Part shown: piece after piece, positions 800 to 64,000 of the stretch
Numbering within the stretch: the first letter of the stretch is position 1
Layout of the letters: each line of letters opens with the position of its first letter
IMG/VR virus record: IMGVR_UViG_3300027896_000023
Coordinates: 1 to 64,000 of that record
DNA from: a virus
DNA length: 64,000 nt
Strand: one strand, 5' to 3'
Notes under the pieces: model-generated
Seen by the model: the letters and a program-made list of their open reading frames with translations, nothing else
Databases searched by the model: none
Told to the model about the DNA's origin: nothing
Made by a program: the position numbers and the translations under genes

Positions 800-1605
800 T
801 ATTTCTTCTCCAACAACATATCGATTATTATGTTACGGGCTTTCCAGTTTAAGTGCACGTCATCCAGGAGGTACTCGGATGCAATAAGGCCATCTGGACC
901 CGCTGTTCTGGACAAGATGTCTATGTAGGGAAAGTTTTTTGCTTTACAATACGCTTTCATTTTCTCGTTAAATTCCCGGAAGATCTCAGCCATAACTACA
1001 GGTGTAGGATAATCTGGGTAGCCATATCCATTGTCTTGGTAACCAGCAGGCGGAATCCCCAGAACAATAAAGCCAACTTTTTTGGCGGCTAGATCCTCAA
1101 GCAGCAACCCGTATCTCTTAACGGTCTCATCAACCAATTCGGATATTGGTCTGTTCTGTTTCTTGCTTTGATAGTAGATATGTATACGGCAGTCGACTTC
1201 TCCAAACACCAGGATAACATTTTGTCCGTCAGTGCACTGGAGAAATGCATAGAAGATATTCCTGGAGTCAGTGGTGCTTCGTTCTGCAACTAGGTTGTAG
1301 GCGGTAGGCGCCTTCATCTGAAACACATAGAAGCCAGATGTATTGTTGAAGATCCTGGCGTGGCTATCGCCTATAACGAAGAAATGCATCCCTTTTTGTT
1401 TTTGGTACATTTCTAATTCACCTTTACTCAACGGCTTTATCAATGCTTCTTCGCAGATCTTTTCAGCTTCTGCAGGTGTAGCTGCTGAGAAAGCAGCATA
1501 AAGGGCTGCCACGTGGCTTTCAGTTAGAAAAATCTCCGTTGCTTCACCGCAGCGGTTGCAAGTGGTGGTAACGCGTACTGCTTTTTCTTTCGGTTCAACA
1601 GCCAT
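793..1605 (-). CDS. SGNH/GDSL hydrolase-like protein with an N-terminal CxxC segment
   Basis: IGDSHA block I, FGEVDCR block III, DDVHLN block V. Confidence 0.7.
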   Translation of the reverse strand: MAVEPKEKAVRVTTTCNRCGEATEIFLTESHVAALYAAFSAATPAEAEKICEEALIKPLSKGELEMYQKQKGMHFFVIGDSHARIFNNTSGFYVFQMKAPTAYNLVAERSTTDSRNIFYAFLQCTDGQNVILVFGEVDCRIHIYYQSKKQNRPISELVDETVKRYGLLLEDLAAKKVGFIVLGIPPAGYQDNGYGYPDYPTPVVMAEIFREFNEKMKAYCKAKNFPYIDILSRTAGPDGLIASEYLLDDVHLNWKARNIIIDMLLEKKYW

Positions 1606-1607
1606 AA

Positions 1608-1931
1608 TTATCCTCTCCGGTAGCTACCATGTATACCTTGAAACCCCATATATGCACGTTTGTCAAAACGATGAGACACAAACTTATGCTTAAGACTAAT
1701 CGTAAGCTTAACTTTAGGCGTAAACTTAAGTTTGCCTTTCACTCTACCATGGATACTTTTCTCTGTTGGAAACAGATCTACGCGGCCAAGAGTGTCAACC
1801 CAGAACAGAGGAAAAAGATGATGCCCTTCCGCCGGGACAGAGTAGTTGAAATAAAATGATATATCGGTAGCAGCTGAGATCCAATAGTGTGATAAGGGAC
1901 TACTCGTGGCCGCGCTTGTGGTTGACTGCAT
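1608..1931 (-). CDS. Hypothetical protein
   Basis: ORF tiles within the minus-strand operon. Confidence 0.4.
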   Translation of the reverse strand: MQSTTSAATSSPLSHYWISAATDISFYFNYSVPAEGHHLFPLFWVDTLGRVDLFPTEKSIHGRVKGKLKFTPKVKLTISLKHKFVSHRFDKRAYMGFQGIHGSYRRG

Positions 1932-2130
1932 GTTCTCTCACTTTAGCGGCTTCTATTAGATTAATTTTCAGGACATCCCCAGTTGTTAAGTTGTACCTAT
2001 TGATTACTGTGGGATCTATGGTAACGTAGTAGATGCCGCCTGAGTGCTTTACTTTCTTCAAAACAATAAGTCCGATCCGTTCTACAGAGTTAATTATCTC
2101 CGTTTCCGAATTATTTTGACCATGAGACAA
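1900..2130 (-). CDS. AbrB/SpoVT-like DNA-binding protein
   Basis: KKVKHSGGIYYVTIDPTVINRYNLTTGDVLKI pattern; TATA-like TTTATATA upstream. Confidence 0.6.
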   Translation of the reverse strand: MSHGQNNSETEIINSVERIGLIVLKKVKHSGGIYYVTIDPTVINRYNLTTGDVLKINLIEAAKVREHAVNHKRGHE

Positions 2131-2613: not shown

Positions 2614-3240
2614 TTAAGTGGTTATAGTCACAGACATAGGTCCACTTAAGATCGAGTTCAACCCAACAACACACGCGCTGGATTGACCGCCCGTCTTGTT
2701 CTTCGCCCATAAGCGTACTCGGTCGTAGACTCCGGTGAAAACAACTGCAACTGAAGTTCCTTTAGTAACGTTGATGTCTGTTTGCGCTACACCTGCAGTA
2801 TTCGAGATCGGTGACCAGGCGTCGACGTCAGCGTTATATCCTTCAATTTTATATGTGATGTCGTTTTGGGCAGCTGCTAAAATCGTGATCGTATGCAACG
2901 CGTATCCAGGAACATCTTCATCGAAGACTTCAGTGTAGGCGTTAAGTGTTTTGATAGAGTTCGATAGGCTTTTCTCTGTTACCCAGTTGTTGATGCGGGC
3001 CACTTTGTACTTGAAGTTAGATGCAACATACAAGCTTGAAGACATATCATTTGAAACAGATTCTCGGACGTCAAAGCTTGATTGCAGATTTTTGGTGCTG
3101 ACTTTACGAACTTGGAAACTGGAACTAAGATTTTTACTGGTTGACTTTCTGCAAGTAAAACTACTGGTTAATTCTTTGCTACCTTCTTTTTCAATTGAAA
3201 AATCTGAAGATAGATCATACGAATCGTCTGATAGGCTCAT
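2614..3240 (-). CDS. Putative virion protein with about five 15-aa xLSSSFxxRK repeats and a beta-rich C-terminus
   Basis: Same repeat type as 57388-61986; lies downstream of MCP. Confidence 0.6.
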   Translation of the reverse strand: MSLSDDSYDLSSDFSIEKEGSKELTSSFTCRKSTSKNLSSSFQVRKVSTKNLQSSFDVRESVSNDMSSSLYVASNFKYKVARINNWVTEKSLSNSIKTLNAYTEVFDEDVPGYALHTITILAAAQNDITYKIEGYNADVDAWSPISNTAGVAQTDINVTKGTSVAVVFTGVYDRVRLWAKNKTGGQSSACVVGLNSILSGPMSVTITT

Positions 3241-7852: not shown

Positions 7853-8710
7853 ATGACAGCCAAAGATAGTTTTCCTTTGAAACTTGGGTTAAATCCTTCA
7901 CGTATTGATGTACGGAACCTACAGTTTGCAGAAATGCTTTCTCCAACTGTGCCATTGCCGCCGATCCCAGAATCTTTTGACATAGACCAAATTTCTTTCA
8001 AGGAAAACATGTTTGGCAACGACATGTGGGGCGACTGTGTAATGGCTTGGCGTGCCAACCAAACCCTGCGGTTTGAGTATTGTTCTCAGAAAAAACAAAT
8101 CCCGATCACAACAAACGAGGTTCTCAACGAATATTGGATTGAACAGGGATACAAACCATCAAGCTGTTTTCTCAAGAACGCTGTCTCTCCAAAGCCAGAC
8201 GGCGGCTTAAGCATGCTGGATTCTCTCACAGCCTGGAGAAAAAATGGTTGGCAGGCAGCTGGAAAACATTACGACATTTACGCTTTCCTACAGCTTCCAG
8301 TTGCAAACGATTGGTGGGGGCAGGCACCTACAAATCCAACTCTTGCTGCAGAAATGGCCAAAGCCGACATGCTTCTAGGACAAGCAATGTATTTGCTGAA
8401 TGGTGCTGGTATTGCAGTCAATATGACTAACACCACTATGAAACAGTTTAAAGCAAATAAAAACTGGGATCTCACAGATCCAATAGACCGAACAATAATA
8501 GGCGGGCACGCGATCTACTTTACTGGCAAAAATACAACTGGTCCAGTTGCGATCAGCTGGGGCAAAAAAGTTCAGTTAACCTGGGCATGGTGGCACGTTT
8601 ACTCCAGTGAAGCATTCTGCATAGTCGACAACAAAGACAACTTCTTACCAAGTGATCCAATCAATATACCACTTCTGGAAAGCTACATGAACGCAATCGG
8701 GGCACAATAA
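7853..8710 (+). CDS. Papain-like (C1-related) cysteine peptidase
   Basis: NDMWGDCV (Cys), GGHAI (His), ISWG. Confidence 0.7.
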   Translation: MTAKDSFPLKLGLNPSRIDVRNLQFAEMLSPTVPLPPIPESFDIDQISFKENMFGNDMWGDCVMAWRANQTLRFEYCSQKKQIPITTNEVLNEYWIEQGYKPSSCFLKNAVSPKPDGGLSMLDSLTAWRKNGWQAAGKHYDIYAFLQLPVANDWWGQAPTNPTLAAEMAKADMLLGQAMYLLNGAGIAVNMTNTTMKQFKANKNWDLTDPIDRTIIGGHAIYFTGKNTTGPVAISWGKKVQLTWAWWHVYSSEAFCIVDNKDNFLPSDPINIPLLESYMNAIGAQ

Positions 8711-8898
8711 TGAACTGGTTAGCTTTGATCGTTTTAATCATAGGTGTCTGCGTTATAGCTGACGGCCTTGGAAGCGCCTGGGTAAAAGATGGACAATACC
8801 ACAACGTATGGTTTGATTCAGAAAGATATTTGCGGGCATTTGCCGGCGCCGTTTTATTTGTGATCGCCGTAATATGGATGCTTAATCTACACCTGTAG
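8710..8898 (+). CDS. Small 2-TM membrane protein (holin-like candidate)
   Basis: Two hydrophobic segments; TAATG coupling to the peptidase gene. Confidence 0.55.
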   Translation: MNWLALIVLIIGVCVIADGLGSAWVKDGQYHNVWFDSERYLRAFAGAVLFVIAVIWMLNLHL

Positions 8899-9168
8899 TT
8901 TTGGAACAGAAGGCAATGCTTGACCGCGCAATCCGTTAAGTGTAAAACGTACACTTTTGTTCCAGCGATACTCCATAACTACGCTTATGCTAATCTTCTG
9001 AACTTTGTTGCCGCCGCACACTGGGCATTTGTTTCCTCTTTGTGCACGGTGAAAAAGATAGTTACTTGCGTGTCCACGATCAGCCTGGTCTTCACAGTCT
9101 AGACACTTGTAGATGCTTTGCTTATCCCGCATTCTACGATCTACATATTCCGGTGTTTCTTCGCCCAT
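8887..9168 (-). CDS. Zn-ribbon protein
   Basis: YKCLDC...KCPVCGG. Confidence 0.6.
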   Translation of the reverse strand: MGEETPEYVDRRMRDKQSIYKCLDCEDQADRGHASNYLFHRAQRGNKCPVCGGNKVQKISISVVMEYRWNKSVRFTLNGLRGQALPSVPKLQV

Positions 9169-9366: not shown

Positions 9367-11670
9367 TCATCCCTGGAGTCCTCCTGGAAGAACAAAGCCG
9401 TCTCCTGCACCTAAAACGTCGCCTGTGTACCCAGCTTGCAACGCCAAATTTGCAAGTAAAGTTGGCAGGTTCTCCTGGGAGATCTTGTCGTTCTGCACAC
9501 TGAAGTGCGTAACAACTACTCGTGGAACCTTCATGCGCTGCGCCTGCTTAAGAGAAGTAAGCACGCTTTGATGTCCACTGTGAAGTTGTGGGCCGTCAAC
9601 GATTGTTACTCCTGCTGCAGGTGTAGGTTCTTCATCCTTCATCATGACGTTGCCATCAATGATCCAGGTGCCTATGTTTTTCAAGTAATCATCTGGAAGA
9701 GAAGAAAAGTCTGGGCTGTAGAGAACGTCTTCCTGGAAGCTGATAGCGTATGTTTTGAATTCCTCGTGATGTTCAACTGGCAGCCAAACAACATGGCAAA
9801 CTCCGATCGCTATTGGATTCTGTGTATCAACTAGAATGATTTCGCGGTCTTTGATTTTATCAGCGATCTCAGGCAGATGCATCAGTAGATCCCGCCAGGT
9901 TTCACGATGCATGTAGATGGGCACTGCAGGATCCAGCAGGGGCAACGCCGCTGTATGATCTGGGTGACCATGGGTGATTACTGCAGCTTCAAGTTTCGTC
10001 ATGATTTTGTCGACGACAATTTGGCTGCCTAAGTCAACAAGAATATCTGTTCCAGATTCCTGGAAGATTATGCTGCTGTTATGACGGTTCTCTGTCTCGT
10101 GGCTGCCAGCTGTTCCAAGAAATCTTATGTTCCAATCATCCTGCTTACGCATTGGATTCACAGGCGGTCTATCTGAAGGAAGAACATTACCGGTCTTTGG
10201 GTCTTTGCGGTGGCCTGGCCAGAAGAACCCTTCCTTCTCAGCTGGCTTCTTTTCTGGTGCATAACCATACTGCAAAGGGCTAGGTTCTTTCATGTTTTGT
10301 TCCAGCGAAGGCGGCAACAGTTCGCCTCCGCCCATATTGTTTACGCCGATGATTCCTCCTGGCGCTAAACTGTAGCCTCCGGACTTCATGATCTCGGACT
10401 TATGCAGCGGTAGCCCTCGGCTATCAAGTTCACGCACGATCGCGTCATGCAGTTCCTTGATTGTTGCACGGTCAAAACGAAACGGCTGCCCCTGTTTTGT
10501 AGCGTTCCACCATTGATGAACCGTTATATGGTCTTCCATAAGAGTAAGACTTGACAACTTATGCGGATCATAGTTGTCGACGTTGGCCATGTGTTCTAGA
10601 CTTGCAGGTGCAGATTCAGGACTATAGACGTTTGTCATAACGCCTTCAGATGTTCGCCCTGGAAAAAAATTGCCGGGAAAATCCGCTGCGTCAGAAGAAT
10701 ATTTTTTGATAAAGCTTTTCTGGAATGCTATATCCTGCAGCACAGTTGGTTCAAACGTAGATGTGTCAGCTAAGATTATGTCTGCAGGTATCTTTCCAAC
10801 GATGAAAGCAGCATGTGGAATCTCGTTCTTGTGGATCCAGTTGACTGTCATCTCATAATAGCGGCTGTCTCGATCAGTAAACAAGATAAGTGTACCTGCC
10901 TTGCTGATTTCATGGAGAGTTTCTCGGACTCCAGGTGCAACTTCAGCTTTTAAGTAGGACTCTGGCAGTGAAAGAGACGTGTCTCTCTTAGCTACAGCTG
11001 TATCTATGTTGACTGCTATGGTTAATTCAGATGAGTTGTTAACCCATTTAGGCGTTGGAAAGAAAACTTTGACGCCTCTTGGGTACTCATACTCCAAAGG
11101 TACATCAAATTTACATAGAATCTGAAAGGCGTAGGCGTAAAGCACTGTGTTTTCTGGCCAGAACTTCTTTCTTTCATCCATTGTTAGGCAATGTTTACCT
11201 ATGCTTTTCTGGAAGTCATTGTCAGTTATGGTGTGCACATCAGTTAATTTGATTACACCATAGATGTAGTTGACGTCTCCGTAGTATAATGCCTTGTTTA
11301 GCATGCCAGTATAGCTTCTACCCTTAACTATGAGGGTTTTTTCACCCTTCCAGATGCGTTCTGCAGCAGGCGCAGGCAGATAAAGACTCTTCGCAGCGAT
11401 CTGTTCAGCACTATTTCGCAGTCCCTGGACCGTTACAGCGTTCACTGGAATGCCATCTAAGTCGTCTTTTACCTCATGTAACATGCCTCTATGGCCTATT
11501 TCGGATACCAAAAGGCTGTGGTAATCCACTAAATCCACTATACTCCAGTCTGAAACCGCCTCCGGAGTCTCCCTTTTACGCATAAAAAGGGCATGTGCCA
11601 GTGCATGATCGAACACAAGTTGCTTATCATCCAATCTTCCTGGCACGGAAGACTGAGTAGAGGCGGTCAA
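9367..11670 (-). CDS. Multidomain protein: ASCH/PUA-like, degenerate HAD-like and metallo-beta-lactamase-fold (RNase Z/PhnP-like) domains
   Basis: AERIWKGEKTLIVK...IYGVIKL; PGVRETL..ILFTDR..NWI.KNEIP; FLGTAGS, THGHPDH, YSPD, GH, THFS. Confidence 0.75.
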   Translation of the reverse strand: MTASTQSSVPGRLDDKQLVFDHALAHALFMRKRETPEAVSDWSIVDLVDYHSLLVSEIGHRGMLHEVKDDLDGIPVNAVTVQGLRNSAEQIAAKSLYLPAPAAERIWKGEKTLIVKGRSYTGMLNKALYYGDVNYIYGVIKLTDVHTITDNDFQKSIGKHCLTMDERKKFWPENTVLYAYAFQILCKFDVPLEYEYPRGVKVFFPTPKWVNNSSELTIAVNIDTAVAKRDTSLSLPESYLKAEVAPGVRETLHEISKAGTLILFTDRDSRYYEMTVNWIHKNEIPHAAFIVGKIPADIILADTSTFEPTVLQDIAFQKSFIKKYSSDAADFPGNFFPGRTSEGVMTNVYSPESAPASLEHMANVDNYDPHKLSSLTLMEDHITVHQWWNATKQGQPFRFDRATIKELHDAIVRELDSRGLPLHKSEIMKSGGYSLAPGGIIGVNNMGGGELLPPSLEQNMKEPSPLQYGYAPEKKPAEKEGFFWPGHRKDPKTGNVLPSDRPPVNPMRKQDDWNIRFLGTAGSHETENRHNSSIIFQESGTDILVDLGSQIVVDKIMTKLEAAVITHGHPDHTAALPLLDPAVPIYMHRETWRDLLMHLPEIADKIKDREIILVDTQNPIAIGVCHVVWLPVEHHEEFKTYAISFQEDVLYSPDFSSLPDDYLKNIGTWIIDGNVMMKDEEPTPAAGVTIVDGPQLHSGHQSVLTSLKQAQRMKVPRVVVTHFSVQNDKISQENLPTLLANLALQAGYTGDVLGAGDGFVLPGGLQG

Positions 11671-16732: not shown

Positions 16733-16873
16733 ATGGATCAAAGATTAGTAAAATGCACCCGATGTTTGAGGCTATATATTTTTCCGGAGACAACCGCAGG
16801 TGTATGCCCCAGTTGTGGACACCCAGGGTTTATAGTATCATATCCTAAATCTACAGCTGTAGATAAGCCATAA
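16733..16873 (+). CDS. CPxCG Zn-finger microprotein (46 aa)
   Basis: MDQRLVKCTRC...VCPSCGHPG. Confidence 0.55.
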   Translation: MDQRLVKCTRCLRLYIFPETTAGVCPSCGHPGFIVSYPKSTAVDKP

Positions 16874-42435: not shown

Positions 42436-42437
42436 AA

Positions 42438-53084: not shown

Positions 53085-53686
53085 CCATACCTCGCAAAAC
53101 TATCTATCGATCGACTGCCTTCATTCATTCCAGTTAACCAGGATCTAGGAACAAGTATGAATGGATCACCACTTGCTTCAGGACGCGGCTGCAGAGATAC
53201 AGTCTCGAATGGCACTCGTGGAAAATTCAAATGAAGCGTCTGCATCATTTGCCTTTCAAAGTAAATCTCATGGTTTTTCGGTACAAGTATTTTGCAGAGA
53301 TCACAGAACGGTTGGCGATCGGGCCTGATTAGGAACATGCCAAGTTTCGGATCGTCAACAACGTAGAGGTAACGCACATTGATTTTTTGAAGATGCCTAG
53401 CGATAAACCAGGGGATTGCTTCAACAGAGAAGTTGCCTGTTGAGTCTGCTGTTCTCGTGCAGTCTTTACATTCTAGAAGGTAGCATTCAGCGCCGCCTCG
53501 TGTGGCCAAGTAATCTGGTCTGGTTCGCACGTATAAGCTGGTGCTGTCGTAGACGCCTTGTAATGCTTCAACTACAGGTGTAGGATAATGTTCAACTCCG
53601 AATGGAGTTATGGTCCACCCGGCATCTGATAAGGCGTGAACCAGTTTGTCAGCTGTCGACGTGAAGTCTTCAGGTCTAAACGTCAA
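53075..53686 (-). CDS. PD-(D/E)xK restriction-like nuclease
   Basis: RPDYL...LLECK. Confidence 0.65.
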   Translation of the reverse strand: MTFRPEDFTSTADKLVHALSDAGWTITPFGVEHYPTPVVEALQGVYDSTSLYVRTRPDYLATRGGAECYLLECKDCTRTADSTGNFSVEAIPWFIARHLQKINVRYLYVVDDPKLGMFLIRPDRQPFCDLCKILVPKNHEIYFERQMMQTLHLNFPRVPFETVSLQPRPEASGDPFILVPRSWLTGMNEGSRSIDSFARYGWR

Positions 53687-54887: not shown

Positions 54888-55226
54888 CTACATTTCTCCT
54901 ACAAAGTCTTGTATTTGATTTGTTACTTTCTCCAGTTCCGCTTCAGTAAGCGGAGGATTATATGTTATACGCAATACACTCCAGCCTCTTATCTCAAGCA
55001 AATTCTTGATTTCTTCATCATACTCCTGCTTCTGCTGGTGCACCTGTTGACCATCAAGGTAAACAACTTTACGTTTTTCATTCCACATAAAATCAGGGAT
55101 AGTTAATTTAAGAACCACCGGCTGCTGAGTCACCATGCCTTTCGTTAATCCACGTTTGCTAAGTTCCTGGAACACTTGGATCTCTGCCTTGCTTACCGAA
55201 GGATGCATGTTTTTCTTATAGGACAT
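54888..55226 (-). CDS. DUF559/Vsr-like nuclease
   Basis: IPDF...VVYLDG..H...L..RGWSVLRI. Confidence 0.8.
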   Translation of the reverse strand: MSYKKNMHPSVSKAEIQVFQELSKRGLTKGMVTQQPVVLKLTIPDFMWNEKRKVVYLDGQQVHQQKQEYDEEIKNLLEIRGWSVLRITYNPPLTEAELEKVTNQIQDFVGEM

Positions 55227-56916
55227 TTAATACATTTGTCCTGGCTGTGGGTTCTGGATGTTCCAACGTTTCTGCCTGGCAGATTCAACTACTCGACGTA
55301 GTTGTTCTGTGAACTCTGCATCTTTCAGCAAAGCAGCTGTATCTTCCAGTTTCTTTAGGTAAGGCTGCACCCAGTCGACGTCAATGATAACATTTGGAGG
55401 AGTAACAAGCACAACGTATTGTGGTTCGTTGCCTGTACTTTTCAAAGCATCCTCCAGTTTTTGCACCAGCTTGTTGGCTTCTTCTTGCTGCAGTGTATCG
55501 TTTAGAATGCGTACGTGGATAACTCGTATGTCTTTACGAATTACGCCAGTGTTTGGATCTCGAAGAGAATGCCCTTTGTTGTTGTCACTCATCTTGATCT
55601 ATTCTCCATCGAACAAAAGTTGATTCAGACAAGTCTTTGTAGACGTCTTTCGCCTGGTCGCCTGTGATTCCGTTACCTTTTTCATCACTCATTATTTCTG
55701 CACCTGTAGTTATCTTGCCCCTACAACAGAGGCGCTCGTCAACACCTTGATGTATCAGAGTAAGCCTCGTATTTGCAGAGGTTTCAAGACTAAGTTAAAG
55801 TTGTACTTGTTTACCGCCTTTCTCAGCAACATACTCTTCTTCTTTCACAGCTGGAGTTGCTGGTACAGAGGGCTCAAGGATTGTAGTTTTCTTCTTGATA
55901 ATGACCGTTTGTCCGCAGCTGGGGCATTTGACATCGCAGATGTATTTTTCTCTTTTTATTGGTTTATCCGGCATTACTTCACCCCCTGTCTTTTCTTAAG
56001 AAAAGTGTTCACAAGATCCGCTGCTTTAGTGCGTAATGTGTTGGGTGGAGAATGAACGTACGCTTTAGAGACCACTACCTGTTCTGTCAGTAACCCGCCT
56101 GTTTCGCTTTTCTCCATTATAAATACAGCGACGTCGCCCTCCTGCATACCCAGGGCTTCAGACAACTCGATTGTAGCTTTGTTCTTCTTATCTACAGGTG
56201 GAGGATTGTTGTCTTCGAAGAAGTTTGGTTTAGGATACTTTGCTTCAACCATTAAGTTGGCCCCCGCAATGCCTTCATTTTCATAGCTGTCAGCTGGCAC
56301 ACTATTGTGTCGCCGATTGTTGGTCTACCCATAGTTTCGTACTCGTCAGGCGGCATGTTAAAAACTATTGTAGACGTCATGCATTCACGTCGCATCATAC
56401 CTGGTCCGAAACTCAATATGCCCGGCGGCAACATTTTCTCAAAGGATTTTCCAATTTTTTCGGCTACGAGGTCTTCATCAGTTTTAAAATTATCTTCTAA
56501 AGAATTTTTCTTTTCAAGTCCATTTTGAAGATGGCAATGAAGCATTATTTTTCCACAGTCGTTGCAGATGCCTGATCCTTTAACAGTGAATCGCATTGTT
56601 ACTTTCATGGGCGTTTTCCTCCCATAGCTACATACTCTTGCCATTCAGCCTCAGTCTGTGGGCCCGCTGGTCCGAAGCGTTCAATTGCTTTTCTTGCAAC
56701 CTCAAAAGGATTTGGTTTCTCTGGTGCAGCTGCTACGATTTCTCGTTCCATGTTAACGTAGAAACTTATGGTTGTCTCGATTGTTCGGTCGTTTTCAATA
56801 GCTAGTTCTTTGCGGCATGGCCATTGACCTATAACAGCGTAGCCTTCTCGTGCACGCAAGTTCAGGTACTCTTCCAGTTTGGAAGCTTCAACAGATATGA
56901 ATGAGTAGCCTTTCAC
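55227..56916 (-). other. Hypothetical ORFs (55227-55592, 55974-56300, 56252-56644, 56605-56916)
   Basis: Tiled minus-strand ORFs. Confidence 0.55.
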
Positions 56917-57100: not shown

Positions 57101-57391
57101 TTAAGCAGTAACAAGCACGAATGAACCATCTTGTTTAGATGGACGACTTTCAAAAAGGGCAGAAAAAATATAGAAATACGTTCCTTTGGGTAACCCGCTT
57201 GTATCGAAATATGCTTGAAACGTGCCTGTCCGTATTTTTTCCACGATCAGATTTGTTTGAATTACACGTCCACGATTATCATGGACTTCGCATAAAGGTG
57301 TAGTGTCTGGATCCATAAGCTGGTTGCCTTCACTGAAGTATTGTGCTTCCAGAACTACGGTATCTCCAACTAAATAATCTGTCACATTCAT
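57101..57391 (-). CDS. Small Ig-like virion protein
   Basis: GDTVVL...DP....GTF.AYFDT...GTYFY. Confidence 0.55.
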   Translation of the reverse strand: MNVTDYLVGDTVVLEAQYFSEGNQLMDPDTTPLCEVHDNRGRVIQTNLIVEKIRTGTFQAYFDTSGLPKGTYFYIFSALFESRPSKQDGSFVLVTA

Positions 57392-60300
57392 CGCCTCTTA
57401 GTATGAAGCTTAGCCTTTACAAGTCTCTCCGTATGTGTCCGTTTGTATTTAACTATTCTCCTGATGTGAAAACTGCAAGGCATGTTACTCCAAGGTGGGC
57501 TAAGTTTAAAGATGTTAGATAGATCTGCGGACCCGACGTTTCGAACAGTAAATTCTTCCAGGAGATCTTCAGCTGCAGATTTACGGATAGTGAAGCTACT
57601 GTGGACTTCAGCCTGGTTACTGTTTTGGATTGTTAGGCTGGATTGCAAGTTGCGTTGACCAATGTTTCGTACAATGAATTCTTCTTCCAGGTCAACTGCA
57701 CTGTGGTATCTTGGCAGGAAACTACCGCTGAGGTCTCGGCTGGCTGGATGCCGCACAATAAACTTGCATGATTCGTTCTTGCTGGAAGCTTTCTGTATAG
57801 TAAAGCTCGAGGAGGCGTCTTTGGTTTTTTGAGTTCTGACTGCGAAGCTACAGCTGAAGTTCACGCTTGCGGATCTGCGGATCGTAAAGTTAGCTGACCT
57901 GTCTTTGCTGCTGGATTTCCGTAGAGTTATGGATGATGATAAGTTTTTGATGCCTTTGTTCTGTACTGTTATGTTGCTGGAACAATCTTTGCTGCTGCTG
58001 CAGCGTATGGTGAAACTAGAGGACAAGTCTTTGGTTGATGTTTTGCGTATTGTGTAGCTGCAAGATAGCTGTTTTGTAGCTACTTTACGGATGGTGCAGC
58101 TCGAGGAGAGATCCTTACTAACGGCTTTTCTACAGGTGAAGCTTGATGAAAGGTCTAAGCTTGCGGATCTGCGGATTGTGAAACTTACTGAGTGATCTTT
58201 GCTGGTTGATTTTCTAATTGTCCAGGATGATGAAAGCTTCTTGCTGCTGTTGTTCTTGACTGTAACTGATGTGTGTACGCCGTCTGCGTATGATGTTCCG
58301 CCTAACGTGAAGTTACAGCTTAAGTCTATGCTGATGATGCGTAGGTTGAAGCTGCTTGATAGATTCTTAGTAGCCGGTGTTCGTATGGTGAAGCTACTGT
58401 GGAGATCTTTGCTGGTGGCTTTACGTAATGTTACGTTTGACGATAAGTCTTTAGCGGTAGATTTTCTAATTGTGAAACTGCTGGAGAGATCTTGGAGACT
58501 TGTTCTTCTGAGAGTAACGCTTGTACTGACATCAGTGTATGTGGATTTACGTAAAGTCCACGACGATGATAGGTCTCGGTTGGATGGTTGGCGAACTGTG
58601 AAGCTTGAAGATATGTCCTGGCCAACTGCTTCTCTGACGTCGAATGAAGCGCTTAAGTTTCTGCTTGCTGAACGCTGAATTGTGAAGGAACAGCTTGCAT
58701 TTGCAAGTGATTGTTTTCTGCAGGTGAAACTTGAGATAAGGTTAATGCCGGCTGGGATGGCAACTTCGAAGCTTGACTGCAGGTCTCGTGATCCGTGATT
58801 ACGGATTGTAACTGAGGTGTGTTCATCTTGGCTACTGGTTTTGCGGATAGAAAAGCTGGAGTGCAATTGGGCGATGGTTGATTTTCTACAGGTGAAGCTA
58901 CAGCTTAGTTCTCGGCTGGAGTTGTTGCGGACTGTAACTGATGCAGACAGATCAGCGGTTGAGAATTTGCGGATAGTAAATGAAGAAGAAATATCACAGG
59001 TAGAGGATTTTTCGATAGCGAATGATGAGGAAAGGTCTTCGTATATTCCGACTTTTTCAATGGTGAATGATGAGAACACATCGACGTAGCTGGTTTTTCT
59101 TATAGTGCAGTTGGAGGAAAAATCTTGGCTGCTTGATTTGAGAAGGGTAACACTGGAGGAGAGATCAATTGAAGATGCCTTACGTATAGTAAACGAAGAT
59201 GATAATTCCCAGGAGGAGAACCAGTAAACTCCGAACGAGCTACCAAGGTTTGTGCTTGAGGTCTTTCTACATATAAAGGATGATGGCATGTTCATGCTGT
59301 TCGGGCTGGTAACGAACATGCTGGATGAGAGGGCTTTGGATCCACGGTTACGGATAGTGACTGATGATGAGAGATAGATTGCTGCAGATTTACGGAGAGT
59401 AACACTTGCACTGATGTCCGCATATACTGATTTACGTATAGTAACTGAAGATGATAGATTAGCAGACGTAGCTTTTCTTACGGTGAAAGATGATGAGACC
59501 GCTTTCGCTGAGGATTTACGCAGAGTTACTGAACTGGAACAATCTATACCGGCTATTTTGCGAAGAGTAAATGATGATGAAACGTCAGCTGTCTTCTCTT
59601 TCTCCAGGGTAAAGCTTGATGAAAGATCTACAGTCGCGGATTTTCTTAAAGTAACCGAGACACTAAGCTGTTTAGAGGATACTTTCCGTATTGTGAAGCT
59701 ACCAGATAAATCGGTTGATGCTGGTTTTCTACAGGTGAAGCTACCAGATAAGTCTCGGCTGGCTGATCGACGAATTACAAACGAAGAAGTCAGATTTTGA
59801 GATGATGATTTCTCTATAGTGAATGATGAGGACAGATCTAATAGGCTTGATTTTCTTACAGTAAAGCTGGATGATAGGTTTTTGCTGTTTACTTTACGAA
59901 TTGTGAAACTGGAAGACAGAACAGTAGTTGATTTGTTGCGTATGGTGACGCTGCTTTGTTGGTCGCAGCTGGTTGCTTTTCGCAGTGTGATGCTGCCGCT
60001 GAGGTCTATAGTTGACGTTTTTCGAATTGTGCATGAAGCAGATAATCTAACGTAAGCAGATTTCCTGATGGTGAAAGACGAGGATACGTCTACAGCTGCA
60101 GCTTTCAGTATTGTGAAGATCGAAGAAAGATCAGCGATAGTTGATTTTCTAATTGTCCAGGAAGACGACAAGTCTACACTGGCAGCCTTGCGAATCGTGA
60201 AGCTTGATGAAAGATTCACACTGCTGCTTTTTCTAATGGTGAATGATGTAGAGAGGTCTTTGAGACTGGTTTTGCGGATGGAAAAGCTTGAGGATAAGTC

Positions 60301-61986
60301 GCTGATTGATTTGTTCCGTATAATTGTGCTACACGATAAGTTACTAACACTGACGTTACGAATGGTTACACTACAAGAGAGGTCTTTAGATGTTGATTTC
60401 CTAATAGTAAATGATGAAGAAAGCGGTGTTGAGGATGATCGTCTGATTGTGGAGCTGGATGAAAGATCTTTGCTGTTGACCTTACGAATTGAGAAAGATG
60501 ATGGCAACTCGATGGAAGATGTTTTTCTGCAGGTGAAGGAAATAGAGAGGTTGATGCTGCTGCTGTTCTGTATGGTTGTGCTTGATGACAGATCGTGTGT
60601 AGAGGATTTGCGAACTGTAAAGCTGCAGGATAAATTCTGGCTGCTGGATCGACGGATAGTGAATGATGATGAAAGGTTCTGTGGTGATCCAACTTTGCGG
60701 ATAGTGAATGAGACTGACAGGTCTTTGGTAGTTGATTTTCTAATTGTGAAACTGGAACTAAGGTCTTTTGTACCCTTATTGCGGACTATAACTGATCCAG
60801 AGAGATCTCTGGGAGTTCCCGTTCGGCGGATCGTGAAACTAGACGACGCATCTTTTGGCGTTCCAACTTTTCTGATTGTGAAACTGGAGGAGAGTGCTTT
60901 TGTGCCCTTTTTCTCGACAGTGACGCTGCTTGACAGGTCTTTAGCTACAACCGCTTGCAGTTGATACCAGGTGAAGTTACTGATTTGACTAAGGTTAGTT
61001 GAGGAACCATAGCTGAAACGCATACGAGTAGCCGTAGAGTTCACGTTGAAAGCATATCGATAGTTGAATGTCCACGTGTCTGTTCCGATAGATTTAGCGT
61101 TGGTAAATGCAGCAGTGATCCATGCAGCGTTGACGAAGGTTGCTGCAGCATTCACTTTTACGTTAGTGATGATGGCGTCGTTTAGGTTTAAGGTAGTTGT
61201 TCCAGCAGGCGTCCACGTTGCTGTATAATACGCGATCGCAGCGTTAGCGGCAATGCCGGAAGCGCCAACGTTTGTGCCTATCTGAGTGTTCGCGCCAACT
61301 CCACCTGTGTTGCTTCGTACAAAAATGTTAACGCAGATGTTTCCTGTGTTGGTGCCTGATGCGGCGTTAGCGTTCATGTAGCAGACCGTTGTTGCAGGAG
61401 ATGTGGTTGAAAGGTTCGGGAGAGTTAAACCGTGAGTTACTACAGTGGTGCCGTTGTTTGAGAAGTACCGGGTTTCAACTGGATCATGTATATCGAAGCC
61501 AAAGTCAGATGTTGCTTTCACGTCATATTCACGTGTGTCCTCTGGGTCCACAAGCAATGAACGCATGATCTCGTCGAATTCAACGTCGTCGTTCACCATG
61601 GATTTCTGAATCATTTTCTTGTGGAGAATTGGGTGTTCCTGGAAGAGACTTTCCCATTTCCAGTCATCATCCATAAACTCTTGGACACCAGCTGAATCAA
61701 TTATGATTGGTTCGTCTGAGTCTACTCGAACAATGCAGAATTCGTATGGGCTTGGACCGTATTGATCTCGGTTTTTGTCTAGTTCGTAAACTATGCTGAA
61801 TGACGCATTATATTTTGGTACACCTGTAGCTTTGTCCCATTCTTCGTTTACACGTGCGATTGATGGGCGGTAGGGTTCTTCGTAGCCGTTGCCAACTACA
61901 GCGCATTTTATCCATTGAGAGTATTTTCTGTCGACTGCTTGGCGCCATGGAATAATCAGTGATGAAGTTAACAGTAAATCAGACAT
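57388..61986 (-). CDS. 1532-aa protein with roughly 75 tandem 15-aa repeats (consensus ~SKDLSSSFTIRKxxx); putative fibre
   Basis: Repeats evident from residue ~345 to the end. Confidence 0.8.
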   Translation of the reverse strand: MSDLLLTSSLIIPWRQAVDRKYSQWIKCAVVGNGYEEPYRPSIARVNEEWDKATGVPKYNASFSIVYELDKNRDQYGPSPYEFCIVRVDSDEPIIIDSAGVQEFMDDDWKWESLFQEHPILHKKMIQKSMVNDDVEFDEIMRSLLVDPEDTREYDVKATSDFGFDIHDPVETRYFSNNGTTVVTHGLTLPNLSTTSPATTVCYMNANAASGTNTGNICVNIFVRSNTGGVGANTQIGTNVGASGIAANAAIAYYTATWTPAGTTTLNLNDAIITNVKVNAAATFVNAAWITAAFTNAKSIGTDTWTFNYRYAFNVNSTATRMRFSYGSSTNLSQISNFTWYQLQAVVAKDLSSSVTVEKKGTKALSSSFTIRKVGTPKDASSSFTIRRTGTPRDLSGSVIVRNKGTKDLSSSFTIRKSTTKDLSVSFTIRKVGSPQNLSSSFTIRRSSSQNLSCSFTVRKSSTHDLSSSTTIQNSSSINLSISFTCRKTSSIELPSSFSIRKVNSKDLSSSSTIRRSSSTPLSSSFTIRKSTSKDLSCSVTIRNVSVSNLSCSTIIRNKSISDLSSSFSIRKTSLKDLSTSFTIRKSSSVNLSSSFTIRKAASVDLSSSWTIRKSTIADLSSIFTILKAAAVDVSSSFTIRKSAYVRLSASCTIRKTSTIDLSGSITLRKATSCDQQSSVTIRNKSTTVLSSSFTIRKVNSKNLSSSFTVRKSSLLDLSSSFTIEKSSSQNLTSSFVIRRSASRDLSGSFTCRKPASTDLSGSFTIRKVSSKQLSVSVTLRKSATVDLSSSFTLEKEKTADVSSSFTLRKIAGIDCSSSVTLRKSSAKAVSSSFTVRKATSANLSSSVTIRKSVYADISASVTLRKSAAIYLSSSVTIRNRGSKALSSSMFVTSPNSMNMPSSFICRKTSSTNLGSSFGVYWFSSWELSSSFTIRKASSIDLSSSVTLLKSSSQDFSSNCTIRKTSYVDVFSSFTIEKVGIYEDLSSSFAIEKSSTCDISSSFTIRKFSTADLSASVTVRNNSSRELSCSFTCRKSTIAQLHSSFSIRKTSSQDEHTSVTIRNHGSRDLQSSFEVAIPAGINLISSFTCRKQSLANASCSFTIQRSASRNLSASFDVREAVGQDISSSFTVRQPSNRDLSSSWTLRKSTYTDVSTSVTLRRTSLQDLSSSFTIRKSTAKDLSSNVTLRKATSKDLHSSFTIRTPATKNLSSSFNLRIISIDLSCNFTLGGTSYADGVHTSVTVKNNSSKKLSSSWTIRKSTSKDHSVSFTIRRSASLDLSSSFTCRKAVSKDLSSSCTIRKVATKQLSCSYTIRKTSTKDLSSSFTIRCSSSKDCSSNITVQNKGIKNLSSSITLRKSSSKDRSANFTIRRSASVNFSCSFAVRTQKTKDASSSFTIQKASSKNESCKFIVRHPASRDLSGSFLPRYHSAVDLEEEFIVRNIGQRNLQSSLTIQNSNQAEVHSSFTIRKSAAEDLLEEFTVRNVGSADLSNIFKLSPPWSNMPCSFHIRRIVKYKRTHTERLVKAKLHTKRR

Positions 61987-62683
61987 TTTTTGGCACCTGC
62001 AAATTCAAGACTTTACCGCCGAAGTTTCTCAGGTGCTTACATTTTACTCGCCTGTCAACCCACAGCATATAATTTCGGCGCAACGCGTTGTAACAGAAGC
62101 CGTGGTCTTCACTTAGGGCAAAGGGGGTGCCGTCAGGCATAGGGATATTCCAAATTTTAAAGGATACTTTTTTGTCATTCATCACCTGTTTTGTTAAGAA
62201 CATGCAAGCTGTGTTTACAGCGTGCACTGAAAACAACTGTTCAGTCGGTAGCACATTGCTGAAGTCGTAGTATGGTTTAAAGTAGCCAAAGCCCAGGCGA
62301 ATATTCATTTTATTGTCTGGAACTAACACGATACCGCCAACGATGTCCACTTCATCTTCCAAGAAGTTGTTTATGGTTTCAGGCGGTGGGCACACGTCGC
62401 TGTCTAGGAACCAGGCGTAATCATAGTTTCGTCCGTACTCCATGAGAAGATCGCGGATTTTACCTATTTCGAAAAAACGGTTCTGTGTTGGCGTTGTGAA
62501 GTCTATGTCGACTGCTATTATCTGGTGTTTCAACTTGAAGTTCTGCATAACGTAGCTGCGTTTAGGAGATTTCGTGGGGATTGCAAAGAAGAACTTCAGC
62601 TTATCTTTTGGGTAATTGAGATGATACCAGCTGGCCCAGACGCTTTTAAGTGTACGTTCTGGATGTTCATGCATTGGAACCAT
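61979..62683 (-). CDS. GT-A (family 2-like) glycosyltransferase
   Basis: WFLDSDV, SEDHGFC, WVD..VKCKH. Confidence 0.8.
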   Translation of the reverse strand: MVPMHEHPERTLKSVWASWYHLNYPKDKLKFFFAIPTKSPKRSYVMQNFKLKHQIIAVDIDFTTPTQNRFFEIGKIRDLLMEYGRNYDYAWFLDSDVCPPPETINNFLEDEVDIVGGIVLVPDNKMNIRLGFGYFKPYYDFSNVLPTEQLFSVHAVNTACMFLTKQVMNDKKVSFKIWNIPMPDGTPFALSEDHGFCYNALRRNYMLWVDRRVKCKHLRNFGGKVLNLQVPKNV

Positions 62684-62706
62684 AACAGCTATGTTGGGTG
62701 TGTCTG

Positions 62707-64000
62707 TCAGTTTCGGTAGACCTCCGCTTTCACTGTGTATGCGCCTAGTTCTACGTTGTCATCTGGGTTCCAATCGTAAGCAGCATGGTAAGTTCCGGTT
62801 GAATCCTTCGTAACGATACCTATGTATGGACCATAGAGTACGCTGCTTGGGCTTACAGCGAATAATCTGCAGGTGTAGCCGGAGGCATCGAGGTCGTTTG
62901 GATCTGTGAAGTCGCATCGCAAAGTCGACGTAGCTGATCCTGAACGCTGCACAGAAGAAGGACTATTAGAAACAGAAGTAATTGTGAAAGCAACGATAGC
63001 TTTTAAAGTTATAATACAGCCTGAACCAAACATCCAACTGGCGGTTGATGAAGTAACATGTGTTTCAGCGGTACCAACACTTGAAACAATCTTTGTTAAC
63101 AAACCTTGTATCTGGTATCCTTGTCCACTAGATGTGAATTGGATTACTGGACTATTTGTTAAAATGAAACCATTCGTTGGGTTAGACAAAGTGCAGGATG
63201 TTGGAGTGAGGCAACCAGCTACACCTATCCATAATTCATTAGGCACAGTTGTGGTAGCTGTAGTTCCAGTATTCACTGGATTAGCTTCAGCGTCGGCTGT
63301 GGCAATTTTATCAACATAATTAATAGAGGCAATACCTGAATATTCAACAACTCCAAGTATCGCAACAACGTTTCCATTATTTACCCAAGCAACAGAAGCT
63401 GTTACAGTTTTACTTGGGGTAGAGATAACTTTGCCAACCCAGATTTCTGATGTTCCAGTTGTGAATTCGCCGCCTGACTCTGCCTTAGTCCATGAAACAC
63501 CAGATTGAGTTATGTTGTCTATTTTTCCATTGTCTGTGTTACCGCCAGATAAAGAAAAAGTGGCAATCAAAGTGTTGCCGACTACAGGTGTAGCGTTTAA
63601 AGTGACAGGCAGATCGAATGCCATGTCATCAGCATTTCCTTCAGCTGTAGCAAAAACTGGCCCTTGCACAGGCAAAATACCTGTTGGCAGATCAATGTCT
63701 ACATCAGATAAAACAGCACCGTCGACATACAGGTCTGCTGCGTATGCGTTGTCAGCACTGAAATCAATCAAAGAATATTCAATGGATCCTGTTGCAGTGT
63801 TATCGAAGTCTTTACTCATAACGGATAATCCATCTATCCATGCTTCTACATGTCCTTCAACCGCTACAGTGCAGCGAACTTTGATTATGTACCAACGATT
63901 AATGTCGATGCTTGACGGAGTATAGGTGATAACATGTTCAGCGTCATATCCCAGATACCAACTTAATATGCCACCGTCGTTGCGTATGCCAATAGCTGCC
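62707..64000 (-). CDS. Beta-rich virion/tail protein, 5' end beyond the window (LamG-like segment)
   Basis: Frame of 62707-63819 stays open to the window end (...NRWYIIKVRC...EAWIDG...). Confidence 0.65.
   Translation of the reverse strand, partial: AAIGIRNDGGILSWYLGYDAEHVITYTPSSIDINRWYIIKVRCTVAVEGHVEAWIDGLSVMSKDFDNTATGSIEYSLIDFSADNAYAADLYVDGAVLSDVDIDLPTGILPVQGPVFATAEGNADDMAFDLPVTLNATPVVGNTLIATFSLSGGNTDNGKIDNITQSGVSWTKAESGGEFTTGTSEIWVGKVISTPSKTVTASVAWVNNGNVVAILGVVEYSGIASINYVDKIATADAEANPVNTGTTATTTVPNELWIGVAGCLTPTSCTLSNPTNGFILTNSPVIQFTSSGQGYQIQGLLTKIVSSVGTAETHVTSSTASWMFGSGCIITLKAIVAFTITSVSNSPSSVQRSGSATSTLRCDFTDPNDLDASGYTCRLFAVSPSSVLYGPYIGIVTKDSTGTYHAAYDWNPDDNVELGAYTVKAEVYRN

Follow-up and report, generated by a model that had tools for sequence, protein, structure and literature searches.

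Iterated words such as HIP1, uptake sequences and Chi are informative on the machines that handle DNA, and they have been described almost only for cellular chromosomes. HIP1 (GCGATCGC), the highly iterated palindrome of cyanobacteria, is accompanied by alternate highly iterated palindromes (Elhai 2015, PMC4390886; Xu, Lawrence & Durand 2018, PMC5861425), and its one-nucleotide deviations are biased to the first and last position (PMC4390886). Among phages, the start-associated sequence (SAS) GGGATAGGAGCCC of Cluster K mycobacteriophages is 12-13 bp long, includes a Shine-Dalgarno (SD) core and is separated by 3-7 nt from the ATG that follows it (Pope et al. 2011, PMC3203893). We here report a 12-bp quasi-palindromic word, CTDCASSTGHAG, that is iterated throughout the window, i.e. 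the first 64 kb of the 84,165-bp virus record IMGVR_UViG_3300027896_000023 (hereafter G000).

The word behaves closest to HIP1 and the alternate palindromes, minus the cellular chromosome and the conserved cognate methyltransferase. As with HIP1, it is a short palindrome present about once per kb, far above expectation, both between genes and inside genes in all frames; its identity is lineage-specific, and it deviates at the first and last positions and changes by substitution. It differs in being carried by the genome of an archaeal-type tailed virus and not by a cellular (cyanobacterial) chromosome, in its length of 10-12 bp, of which three pairs of positions are degenerate and the centre is preferably the asymmetric CAGGTG, and in being AT/GC-mixed rather than GC-rich. 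In addition, the search for a conserved cognate methyltransferase was negative, one variant also functions as a ribosome-binding site (RBS), and the copies form one dense block as against the 10-90-kb periodicity reported for HIP1, for which 84 kb would be too short. A full-text literature search, covering main texts, returned no such iterated word for archaeal viruses or archaea, in line with the statement in the initial annotation of this DNA that no such motif was known for archaeal viruses. The main text of Philosof 2017 (PMC5434244) likewise mentions no such motif, and its supplements, like those of Pope 2011, might hold motif tables.

The strict 12-mer matches exactly 55 times in the window, against a mean of 0.18 and a maximum of 2 in 100 dinucleotide-preserving shuffles, and 62 times in the whole contig (0.74 strict copies per kb). 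The initial annotation, made from the letters alone, had proposed a genome-wide HIP-like iterated quasi-palindrome with more than 50 strict copies against an equal-base expectation of about 0.14; its arithmetic is right (36 variants / 4^12 x 64,000), all 21 coordinates that it named are among the 55, and the counts and three shuffle controls uphold the proposal. When k-mers of both strands were ranked without prior knowledge, TACAGGTG was counted 64 times against 2.3, CTACAGGTG 49 times against 0.54 and CTACAGCTG 28 times against 0.73; as in HIP-type systems, a palindromic word is over-represented at least 15-fold genome-wide. A single mismatch is found in 72 further copies in the contig, 49 of which deviate at the two outer positions (1 and 12). 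Since outer-position deviations dominate this set, the 10-bp core TDCASSTGHA is the better-defined unit, and it occurs 103 times in the window (3.26 +/- 1.9, maximum 9, in shuffles) and 117 times in the whole contig (9 for the reversed control).

Position-by-position replacement showed hardly any variation at T2, C4, A5, T8 and A11 and little more at G9 (8 G-to-A variants). Position 3 tolerates A, G and T (A42 / G14 / T6 / C0) and position 10 T, A and C (T26 / A21 / C15 / G1), the two central bases are G or C only, and the outer C and G are preferred and not obligatory (C62 / A14 / T8 / G5). Of 124 symmetrised flanks, 105 have A or T at the second position beyond the word, giving the extended form (W-N-)C-T-D-C-A-S-S-T-G-H-A-G(-N-W). 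The dyad is rigid: T[AG]CA and TG[TC]A are separated by exactly two bases in 84 cases, and each of the other spacings between 0 and 15 accounts for about 10. This sharp specificity is enzyme-like or protein-like. The commonest inner deviation, G-to-A at position 9 (CTDCASSTAHAG), accounts for 8 copies (6848, 15836, 25911, 28652, 29096, 30576, 33096 and 43956), all in plus-strand orientation and none in the complementary form, and in some of them the half-site is directly repeated (CTACACCTACAG).

Strict copies are spaced in a Poisson-like manner with one dense block (coefficient of variation, CV, 1.08), which rules out the even spacing of a ParB- or KorB-like array. The block in G001, a related virus described below, that is syntenic to the dense block (74.8-81.3 kb) is also the densest of that genome. 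The parS/matS-type organisation suggested earlier is not borne out by this spacing, and the ParB-like domain, present in G000 only as a fusion to a methyltransferase, is absent from G001.

The distribution in the window can be outlined as follows:
996-63650: array span, 55 strict 12-mers (0.86 per kb) and 103 TDCASSTGHA cores (1.6 per kb)
27510-43384: dense block of 16 kb, occupied by small early genes on the plus strand and containing 29 of the 55 strict copies

The relation of the word to coding sequence was analyzed with our own greedy longest-open-reading-frame (ORF) calls, 142 in G000, with ORF interiors defined as ORFs minus their first 5 and last 11 codons. In the contig, 44 of the 62 copies (71%) are located well inside ORFs and 18 at gene boundaries. 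The 44 interior copies compare with 1.88 +/- 1.41 (maximum 7) when synonymous codons were shuffled within each gene and with 0.27 when codon order was shuffled; the seven-fold gap between the two controls indicates that amino-acid sequences are also bent toward the word. Pooled exact di-codon-preserving Euler shuffles, the check that had been proposed at the outset as able to overturn the finding, left the enrichment in place (45 observed against 2.29 +/- 1.51, maximum 6; for the core, 94 against 16.4 +/- 4.0). The word is thus found inside ORFs in all frames and between ORFs, beyond codon and di-codon usage, as in HIP-type systems, and the contention that neither codon usage nor an RBS role suffices alone stands, as the interior excess outlives synonymous, codon-order and di-codon shuffles.

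The interior copies are distributed over frames 0, 1 and 2 as 7, 30 and 7, in genes of both strands, which agrees with the initial annotation. The 30 copies read as xCT-DCA-SST-GHA-G encode small linker-like peptides (PTPVV, ATAVA, PTGEA), and the peptides overall are LQV(K/Q) (n=7), (F/Y)(T/S)C(R/S) (n=7) and, for the rest, [PATS]-[TA]-[GAP]-[VEA]; the 'YRC/YSC' given previously is really YTC/FTC/FSC. On the sense strand the centre is CC in 17, GG in 12 and GC in 15 interior copies. This lack of sense bias, together with the use of three frames, indicates that the signal acts on double-stranded DNA, and a motif at the level of mRNA or peptide is ruled out for the bulk of copies. The bases excluded from the word would give Pro (CCA) or Gly (GGA), both tolerable in linkers, so the exclusions reflect a reader and not coding.

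The 55 strict copies in the window are given below, with distances to ATG in nt after the word and the number of codons opened; minus-strand ORF calls at 29938-31522 are doubtful.
996-1007: CTACAGGTGTAG, inside ORF 793-1605 (minus), frame 1, PTPVV
1470-1481: CTGCAGGTGTAG, inside ORF 793-1605 (minus), frame 1, ATPAE
2787-2798: CTACACCTGCAG, inside ORF 2614-3240 (minus), frame 1, TAGVA
8887-8898: CTACACCTGTAG, ends of ORFs 8710-8898 (plus) and 8887-9168 (minus)
9615-9626: CTGCAGGTGTAG, inside ORF 9367-11583 (minus; metallo-beta-lactamase (MBL)-fold protein), frame 1, PTPAA
13045-13056: CTACAGGTGTAG, inside portal gene 11675-13426 (minus), frame 1, ATPVV; not conserved in G003 (indel region)
14437-14448: CTACACCTGCAG, inside TerL gene 14051-15394 (minus), frame 1, SAGVG; identical at G003 6473, absent in G001
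16851-16862: CTACAGCTGTAG (perfect palindrome), divergent region upstream of terS
23400-23411: CTGCACCTGTAG, 3' end of ORF 23267-23443 (plus)
27510-27521, plus strand: CTACAGGTGTAG, 3' end of ORF 26282-27538; ATG 3 nt on, 34 codons (RBS class)
28253-28264: CTACAGCTGTAG, inside ORF 28012-28410 (plus), frame 1, ATAVA
28420-28431, plus strand: CTACAGGTGAAG, intergenic; ATG 5 nt on, 59 codons (RBS class)
28819-28830, plus strand: CTACAGGTGAAG, ATG 5 nt on, 50 codons (RBS class)
28990-29001, plus strand: CTACAGGTGAAG, ATG 3 nt on, 29 codons (RBS class)
29375-29386, plus strand: CTACAGGTGTAG, ATGATG directly after, 158 codons (RBS class)
30135-30146: CTACAGGTGAAG, PTGEA near the end of 47-codon ORF 30014-30157 (plus)
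30337-30348, plus strand: CTACAGGTGCAG, ATG directly after, 28 codons; gene calls doubtful here
31967-31978: CTGCAGGTGTAG, inside ORF 31510-32373 (plus), frame 1, PAGVE
32272-32283: CTACAGGTGAAG, inside ORF 31510-32373 (plus), frame 0, LQVKK; G001 copy at most a few nt away from the aligned position
32359-32370: CTGCAGGTGAAG, last codons (LQVK, then stop) of ORF 31510-32373 (plus)
33811-33822: CTACAGCTGTAG, inside ORF 33678-34190 (plus), frame 1, PTAVD
34072-34083: CTACAGCTGCAG, inside ORF 33678-34190 (plus), frame 1, PTAAE
34445-34456: CTTCAGCTGAAG, inside ORF 34177-34518 (plus), frame 1, SSAED
35036-35047: CTGCACCTGCAG, inside ORF 34732-35292 (plus), frame 1, TAPAG
35747-35758: CTACAGGTGAAG, codons 4-7 (LQVK) of ORF 35738-36421 (plus)
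36508-36519: CTACACGTGAAG, sole CG-centred copy; ATG 10 nt on, 87 codons
36698-36709: CTACAGGTGCAG, inside ORF 36530-36793 (plus), frame 0, LQVQF
36946-36957: CTACAGGTGAAG, inside ORF 36790-37170 (plus), frame 0, LQVKD
37457-37468: CTACAGCTGCAG, 5' end of ORF 37447-38058 (plus)
38015-38026: CTTCAGGTGAAG, 3' end of ORF 37447-38058 (plus)
38690-38701: CTACAGCTGCAG, inside ATP-dependent DNA ligase gene 38192-39193 (plus), frame 0, LQLQI
39457-39468: CTACACCTGCAG, inside ORF 39257-40042 (plus; TPD domain), frame 2, SYTCR
40509-40520, plus strand: CTACAGGTGAAG, ATG 5 nt on, 69 codons (RBS class)
40986-40997: CTACAGGTGAAG, 5' end of ORF 40976-41218 (plus); in-frame ATG 11 nt on, 69 codons
41479-41490: CTACAGGTGAAG, inside ORF 41235-41636 (plus), frame 1, PTGEA; other-frame ATG 2 nt on, 47 codons
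42041-42052: CTACACCTGCAG, inside ORF 41953-42435 (plus), frame 1, PTPAE
42960-42971: CTACAGCTGAAG, inside ORF 42842-44422 (plus), frame 1, TTAEE
43373-43384: CTACAGCTGCAG, inside ORF 42842-44422 (plus), frame 0, LQLQP
45870-45881: CTACAGCTGAAG, inside ORF 45629-45940 (plus), frame 1, TTAEE
48972-48983: CTGCACCTGTAG, inside ORF 48911-49366 (plus), frame 1, PAPVG
49917-49928: CTACACCTGCAG, inside ORF 49508-50521 (plus), frame 1, ATPAA
50821-50832: CTACAGCTGTAG, inside ORF 50718-51101 (plus), frame 1, ATAVA
52293-52304, minus strand: CTACAGGTGAAG, ATG 1 nt on, 62 codons (RBS class, ORF 52103-52291)
53572-53583: CTACAGGTGTAG, inside ORF 53075-53686 (minus), frame 1, PTPVV
55698-55709, minus strand: CTACAGGTGCAG, intergenic; ATG 5 nt on, 35 codons (RBS class)
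57567-57578: CTTCAGCTGCAG, inside 1532-codon ORF 57388-61986 (minus), frame 1, SAAED
57848-57859: CTACAGCTGAAG, inside ORF 57388-61986 (minus), frame 2, NFSCS
58130-58141: CTACAGGTGAAG, inside ORF 57388-61986 (minus), frame 2, SFTCR, repeated protein unit
58886-58897: CTACAGGTGAAG, inside ORF 57388-61986 (minus), frame 2, SFTCR, repeated protein unit
59729-59740: CTACAGGTGAAG, inside ORF 57388-61986 (minus), frame 2, SFTCR, repeated protein unit
60090-60101: CTACAGCTGCAG, inside ORF 57388-61986 (minus), frame 1, AAAVD
60527-60538: CTGCAGGTGAAG, inside ORF 57388-61986 (minus), frame 2, SFTCR; G001 has CTACAGGTGAAG at the aligned position
62867-62878: CTGCAGGTGTAG, inside ORF 62707-64908 (minus), frame 2, GYTCR
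63582-63593: CTACAGGTGTAG, inside ORF 62707-64908 (minus), frame 1, ATPVV
63639-63650: CTTCAGCTGTAG, inside ORF 62707-64908 (minus), frame 1, ATAEG

The 1532-residue protein of 57388-61986 (minus) contains four repeat units, each with the word in the same frame (58130, 58886, 59729 and 60527; SFTCR). The DNA flanking these units has diverged, and the G001 orthologue carries the word at one of the four aligned positions.

G000 encodes a major capsid protein matching phrog_24667 (4.6e-40), a prohead protease, a portal, the large and small terminase, a Cdc48-like AAA ATPase, an ATP-dependent ligase, a DUF5131 protein, a ParB-like + N6/N4 methyltransferase, a DUF559 protein and an S-adenosylmethionine (SAM) methyltransferase. 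All nine records with capsid matches in the GenBank phage collection are archaeal tailed viruses (Haloarcula and Methanofastidiosa viruses, 26-30% identity), and a 46%-identical capsid relative is encoded on a 106-kb contig of a Poseidoniales single-cell genome, which supports the previous assignment to an archaeal virus. The same word is present in G001 (84,303 bp, capsid 75% identical), where 27 strict copies were counted against 2 for the reversed control, 23 of them in ORF interiors (0.94 +/- 0.87 in synonymous shuffles), and where the position profile is the same as in G000. According to CheckV, G000 and G001 are 68% and 78% complete. Their DNA can be aligned over only about 5.3 kb (67-78% identity) and yet both genomes are enriched, which rules out shared sequence ancestry as the cause. 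About 44 of the 142 ORFs are common to the two viruses, with 30-75% amino-acid identity, and the same word with the same degenerate specificity in so distant a relative implies a long-lived sequence-specific reader. Two shorter relatives, G002 (23 kb) and G003 (9.5 kb), contain 3 and 4 copies, respectively, with none of the control in either; G002 is a close relative of G001 that has two of its three sites in common with it and is not independent.

Aligned sites show how the word spreads and is lost. Some nucleotide-aligned sites are one or two substitutions apart (G003 CTACAGCTGCAG versus G000 CTACTGCGGCAG; G002 CTACAGGTGCAG versus G001 CTATAGGTGCAG), one of the differences being C/T at position 4, and two sites are identical (14437 and G003 6473; 77198 and G001 19180). 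No 12-bp indels were seen, and an origin by insertion of a 12-bp mobile mini-element is ruled out. Protein-aligned columns of G000 and G001 cover 16 G000 and 9 G001 sites, of which 2 of the 16 are identical in place (31967 and 78392, in a 41%-identical orthologue; 60527 and 9284); two further G001 sites face near-copies and the remaining ones are unshared. In-place identity thus amounts to 2-3 sites between G000 and G001 and one between G000 and G003, counted over about 25 sites in aligned columns without control words; for HIP-type words, selection is indicated by sites that are better conserved between genomes than control words are (Xu et al. 2018). Strong turnover with some positional conservation fits selection on number more than on place.

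Outside this group the word was not enriched. Among 78 capsid relatives from marine samples (46-52% identity, 920 kb) it was found 7 times against 4 for the control, and five near-complete marine capsid relatives (420 kb) held one copy; these viruses have only capsid, protease and portal in common with G000. Seven viruses with a HerA-like ATPase related to that of G000 (see below) had no strict copy, and queries with the major capsid protein, TerL, a 418-residue protein and the HerA-like protein returned only G001-G003 or distant viruses. Iterated words of their own were sought in three whole records of capsid relatives and none was comparable, the top word of G410 being an ordinary RBS, GGAGGAATGA. 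A separate observation concerns G414 (36,291 bp, direct terminal repeats; HerA-like ATPase of about 35% identity), which lacks the present word and in which a word of its own, TACTACGAG, usually followed by Y-A, occurs 10 times on both strands (equal-base expectation about 0.28, reversed control 1); G415 and G416 contain 4 and 2 copies.

The explanation that we favor, with somewhat less than an even chance of being right, is that a single symmetric reader recognises the copies sequence-specifically on double-stranded DNA, and that they are kept for their number and partly co-opted as RBSs. One two-fold-symmetric reader would recognise TDCASSTGHA all along the viral chromosome, and selection for a high site number, not for particular positions, would hold more than one site per kb. 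Point substitution would write sites wherever coding tolerates them, i.e. in linker-like peptides ([PATS]-[TAS]-[GAP]-[EAV]) and RBSs, and about 20 small early genes would use CTACAGGTGAAG itself as RBS. Our best guess is that reading would mark or coat viral DNA as 'self', or else silence and time transcription genome-wide. No sampled archaeal genome comes anywhere near the density of the word in the virus, and the word could therefore serve as a 'self' label on viral DNA, be it for protection, for organisation or for the choice of DNA to package. The alternative role in transcriptional timing could resemble that of the stoperators of Cluster A mycobacteriophages (L5-type; PMC9283540, PMC3203893), where dozens of 13-bp-class sites genome-wide are read by one phage protein. 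Stoperators differ in being asymmetric, oriented with transcription, mostly intergenic and bound by a monomeric repressor, whereas the word has no orientation rule; neither oriented sites nor a cognate repressor were found, and Pfam gave no helix-turn-helix (HTH) or ribbon-helix-helix (RHH) protein in 60 ORFs.

We infer that a protein reads the word, and the reader would be conserved among the approximately 44 ORFs common to G000 and G001 or be supplied by a shared host. Several points weigh against this explanation. The 60 ORFs searched for HTH or RHH regulators with Pfam include 40 small early ones and gave only weak zinc-ribbon hints, and an RHH_1 search of all six frames had no match. The word centre is CAGGTG/CACCTG in 44 copies, CAGCTG in 17 and CACGTG in one, unlike what two independent identical half-sites would give; CpG depletion (observed/expected 0.83) may explain part of this asymmetry. 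With about 6 nucleotide-aligned and 25 protein-aligned sites, selection and a mutational or repair drive are not separable. The ORF calls are heuristic and both records incomplete, and a host-wide word is excluded for the 552 sampled archaeal genomes only (see below), while the host may belong to a lineage outside them. Finally, the only conserved protein with a DNA-binding-type domain has a putative recognition helix that differs between G000 and G001:
42842-44422, plus strand: HerA/FtsK-superfamily (DUF87-like) ATPase with C-terminal winged helix, conserved in G001

Its assignment draws on Atlas features (0.90 to DUF87 clusters), structure comparison (TM 0.52-0.62) and weak Pfam matches to TrmB/PadR. 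FtsK reads KOPS through a winged helix, and by analogy the HerA-like ATPase might be considered as reader of the word; it is a weak candidate, further weakened by the lack of the word in viruses whose HerA-like ATPase is 33-45% identical. Sequence searches of solved structures with the conserved 526-, 418- and 287-residue proteins returned nothing useful.

A broader form of the same idea, which we consider doubtful, would have an archaeal tailed virus family write a private, lineage-specific 'self' word (TDCASSTGHA here, TACTACGAG in a distant lineage), read by a conserved factor and doubling as RBS of early micro-genes. If 'self' reading is true, one and the same sequence would link early translation to the marking of the genome.

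The word could instead result from a methylation-linked repair drive, as in Elhai's model of HIP, in which a methyltransferase marks the inner core and a mismatch endonuclease of the very-short-patch type converts near-cognates with no benefit to the genome. We regard this as quite improbable. In its favor is the pairing of a methyltransferase with a DUF559 protein among the proteins of G000 that the initial annotation had put forward as partners of the word:
52482-55226, minus strand: the proposed partners, with no homologue of any of them in G001
52482-53084, minus strand: SAM methyltransferase, candidate partner
53075-53686, minus strand: ORF with a PD...ExK-like motif, seen by eye only; overlaps the 3' end of the methyltransferase gene
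53676-54887, minus strand: ParB-like + N6/N4 DNA methyltransferase (N6_N4_Mtase, 3.3e-19)
54888-55226, minus strand: DUF559 protein (5.7e-11), adjoining the methyltransferase gene

The N6/N4 methyltransferase lies immediately beside the DUF559 protein, whose fold we take to be Vsr-like, and judging from these domains and motifs the methyltransferase, the PD...ExK-like ORF and the DUF559 protein may form a restriction-modification-like or repair-like cassette. The 203-residue product of 53075-53686 matched no family and nothing among solved structures, and the nearest solved relatives of the methyltransferase, DpnA and CcrM, align over its C-terminal part only. Also consistent with a drive are the change of sites by point substitution, including C/T at position 4, and the 49 of 72 one-mismatch copies deviating at the first or last position, a pattern reported for HIP1 as well (PMC4390886). 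In contrast, G001 has the same word and profile with no match to PF01555 (N6/N4 methyltransferase), DUF559 or Vsr. It encodes instead a C5 methyltransferase, an intact 317-codon ORF near the contig end (82559-83512; L086 2559-3512) with the usual PC, ENV and QxRxR motifs by eye; the recovered part of G000 has no such enzyme, and no methyltransferase is common to the two. A cognate methyltransferase wherever the word is abundant, as expected of a HIP-type system, is therefore not seen in these 68%- and 78%-complete records, G000 having the N6/N4 and G001 the C5 enzyme only, although the host may supply such an enzyme. In addition, some sites are identical in place across approximately 41%-identical orthologues, as expected under selection, and a specificity of 10-12 bp is longer than usual for enzymes of the methyltransferase/mismatch-endonuclease type. 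The earlier suggestion of a site for a dimeric viral protein, made beside that of a methylation-driven motif, holds in so far as the rigid dyad and sharp specificity fit a symmetric reader. The absence from G001 counts, without excluding them at the stated completeness, against the ParB-methyltransferase, the DUF559 nuclease and the SAM methyltransferase that it named.

It also seems unlikely that the word belongs to the host, as an uptake-, Chi- or nucleoid-type word or a regulator site, with a host machine favoring DNA that bears it and the viruses mirroring it. Uptake sequences (DUS/USS) and Chi/KOPS are over-represented words of 8-12 nt across coding DNA by which a DNA-processing machine discriminates 'own' DNA; they are cellular, mostly asymmetric and orientation-biased, whereas the present word is a dyad that is not enriched in 552 sampled archaeal genomes. 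That two viruses with largely different gene sets have the same degenerate specificity would be easier to explain with a slowly evolving host factor, and the Pfam and six-frame RHH_1 scans, which gave no conserved viral DNA-binding regulator, point the same way. The sampled genomes speak against it. In 401 genomes (1-5.5 Mb) drawn evenly from the phylum of the Poseidoniales single-cell genome, the word reached at most 34 copies, in a 3.8-Mb genome, and the reversed control was often higher; in 151 genomes (0.5-1.5 Mb) from the phylum of a second archaeal metagenome-assembled genome (MAG), no genome had more than 8 copies of CTACAGGTG, of which the 84-kb virus has 49. None of these samples thus comes near 0.74 strict copies per kb. 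A MAG labelled Bacillota (G007, 5.2 Mb) has 35 copies against 2 for the control and was judged to give no host evidence. Its copies are spread over many contigs (e.g. L112), the sampled ones having a GC of 0.38-0.39 and 1-3 copies per 7-20 kb, and the bin, which is possibly mixed, includes a 6.4-kb contig that encodes a capsid protein with 38% identity to the one in the window.

A sizeable subclass of copies serves translation. The variant CTACAGGTGAAG includes a 3'-shifted SD core, AGGTGA, which pairs with the canonical 16S 3' end, and about 20 of 76 ACAGGTG cores sit 2-14 nt 5' of a start codon opening at least 35 codons (e.g. 28420, 28819, 29375, 40509, 41221, 46887, 52293 on the minus strand and 73865 on the minus strand). 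The view that the word is not an RBS alone was correct, and the extent of its RBS use had been understated. Upstream of RBS-class copies lies the preceding gene and no TATA-like box, so they are internal RBSs of operons, and CTACAGGTGAAG is the RBS of roughly 20 small early genes. In our view, two constraints overlap in this subclass, the RBS already supplying half the word.

That the word as a whole is a translation signal, an extended RBS or 'start-associated sequence' of early genes with the intragenic copies as by-products, we consider very unlikely. Beside the approximately 20 cores before start codons, 11 of 18 boundary copies have AGGTG (GG centre) on the strand of the downstream gene, an identical 12-mer precedes ATG in the micro-gene block of G001, and density peaks in the micro-gene block of both viruses. 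The 13-bp SAS of Cluster K mycobacteriophages would be a precedent (PMC3203893): it is conserved across subclusters before unrelated non-structural genes, is absent from known host genomes and has no known partner. SAS is asymmetric, in one orientation and virtually always at gene starts, whereas the word is a dyad, 71% intragenic and in both orientations; the arrangement of an SD core a few nt 5' of starts applies to the subclass only, i.e. about 20 of 76 cores and 10 of 142 starts. The bulk does not behave in this way, as 44 of 62 copies lie well inside ORFs in both orientations with no sense bias, interior copies include perfect palindromes (CTACAGCTGTAG) devoid of an SD core, and the intragenic excess survives all shuffles. 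Cluster K genomes reportedly contain 11-19 SAS copies each. TACAGGTG is present in the 22 nt upstream of no more than 10 of the 142 gene starts, against about 50 with GGAG/GAGG, and CTAC and the final AG cannot extend the pairing with the canonical anti-SD, judging from the 16S 3' end. By analogy with the proposal for SAS (PMC3203893), the flanks of CTACAGGTGAAG might themselves matter for translation.

The least credible explanation is a micro-homology linker for exchange of small gene cassettes between co-infecting relatives, comparable to the boundary sequences or PeSL elements of T4-type phages: copies do occur at micro-gene junctions in the two viruses G000 and G001, which have few related micro-genes, but most are inside large conserved structural and tail genes and 12 bp is very short for homologous exchange.

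Returning to the symmetric reader, the archaeal-type virus pays a visible price for more than one dyad per kb, with amino acids, synonymous codons and RBSs all biased. With 84 kb and about 44 conserved ORFs, the system is small enough for the reader to be findable by experiment, and the result would bear on the marking, organisation and timing of archaeal virus genomes, on the function of HIP-like words and on the co-option of a DNA word as a translation start signal.

Some further features of the record were noted. No tRNA genes that could serve as host clue were found in G000, and an alternative genetic code is ruled out by ORFs of up to 2729 codons open under table 11. One freshwater metagenome run contains window DNA; it may be the source of the record itself and gives no independent evidence on habitat or host. 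At 30440-30760, three tandem copies of an approximately 34-nt unit (about 30447-30520) precede a strand-asymmetric stretch, first C/A-rich and then G/T-rich, that has no convincing ORF; the region, flanked by copies of the word, might act as an origin or have some other non-coding control function. A block of a Cdc48-like AAA ATPase, a 132-residue ORF and a DUF2997 ORF (23822-26139) is conserved in G001 (33-43% identity). The ORF at 39257-40042, with a TPD domain and HTH hints, is followed within the stretch 39257-40269 by a 76-codon ORF that matches the C-terminal domain of ATP-dependent ligases (PF04679, 8.9e-06) and lies just 3' of the complete ligase gene.

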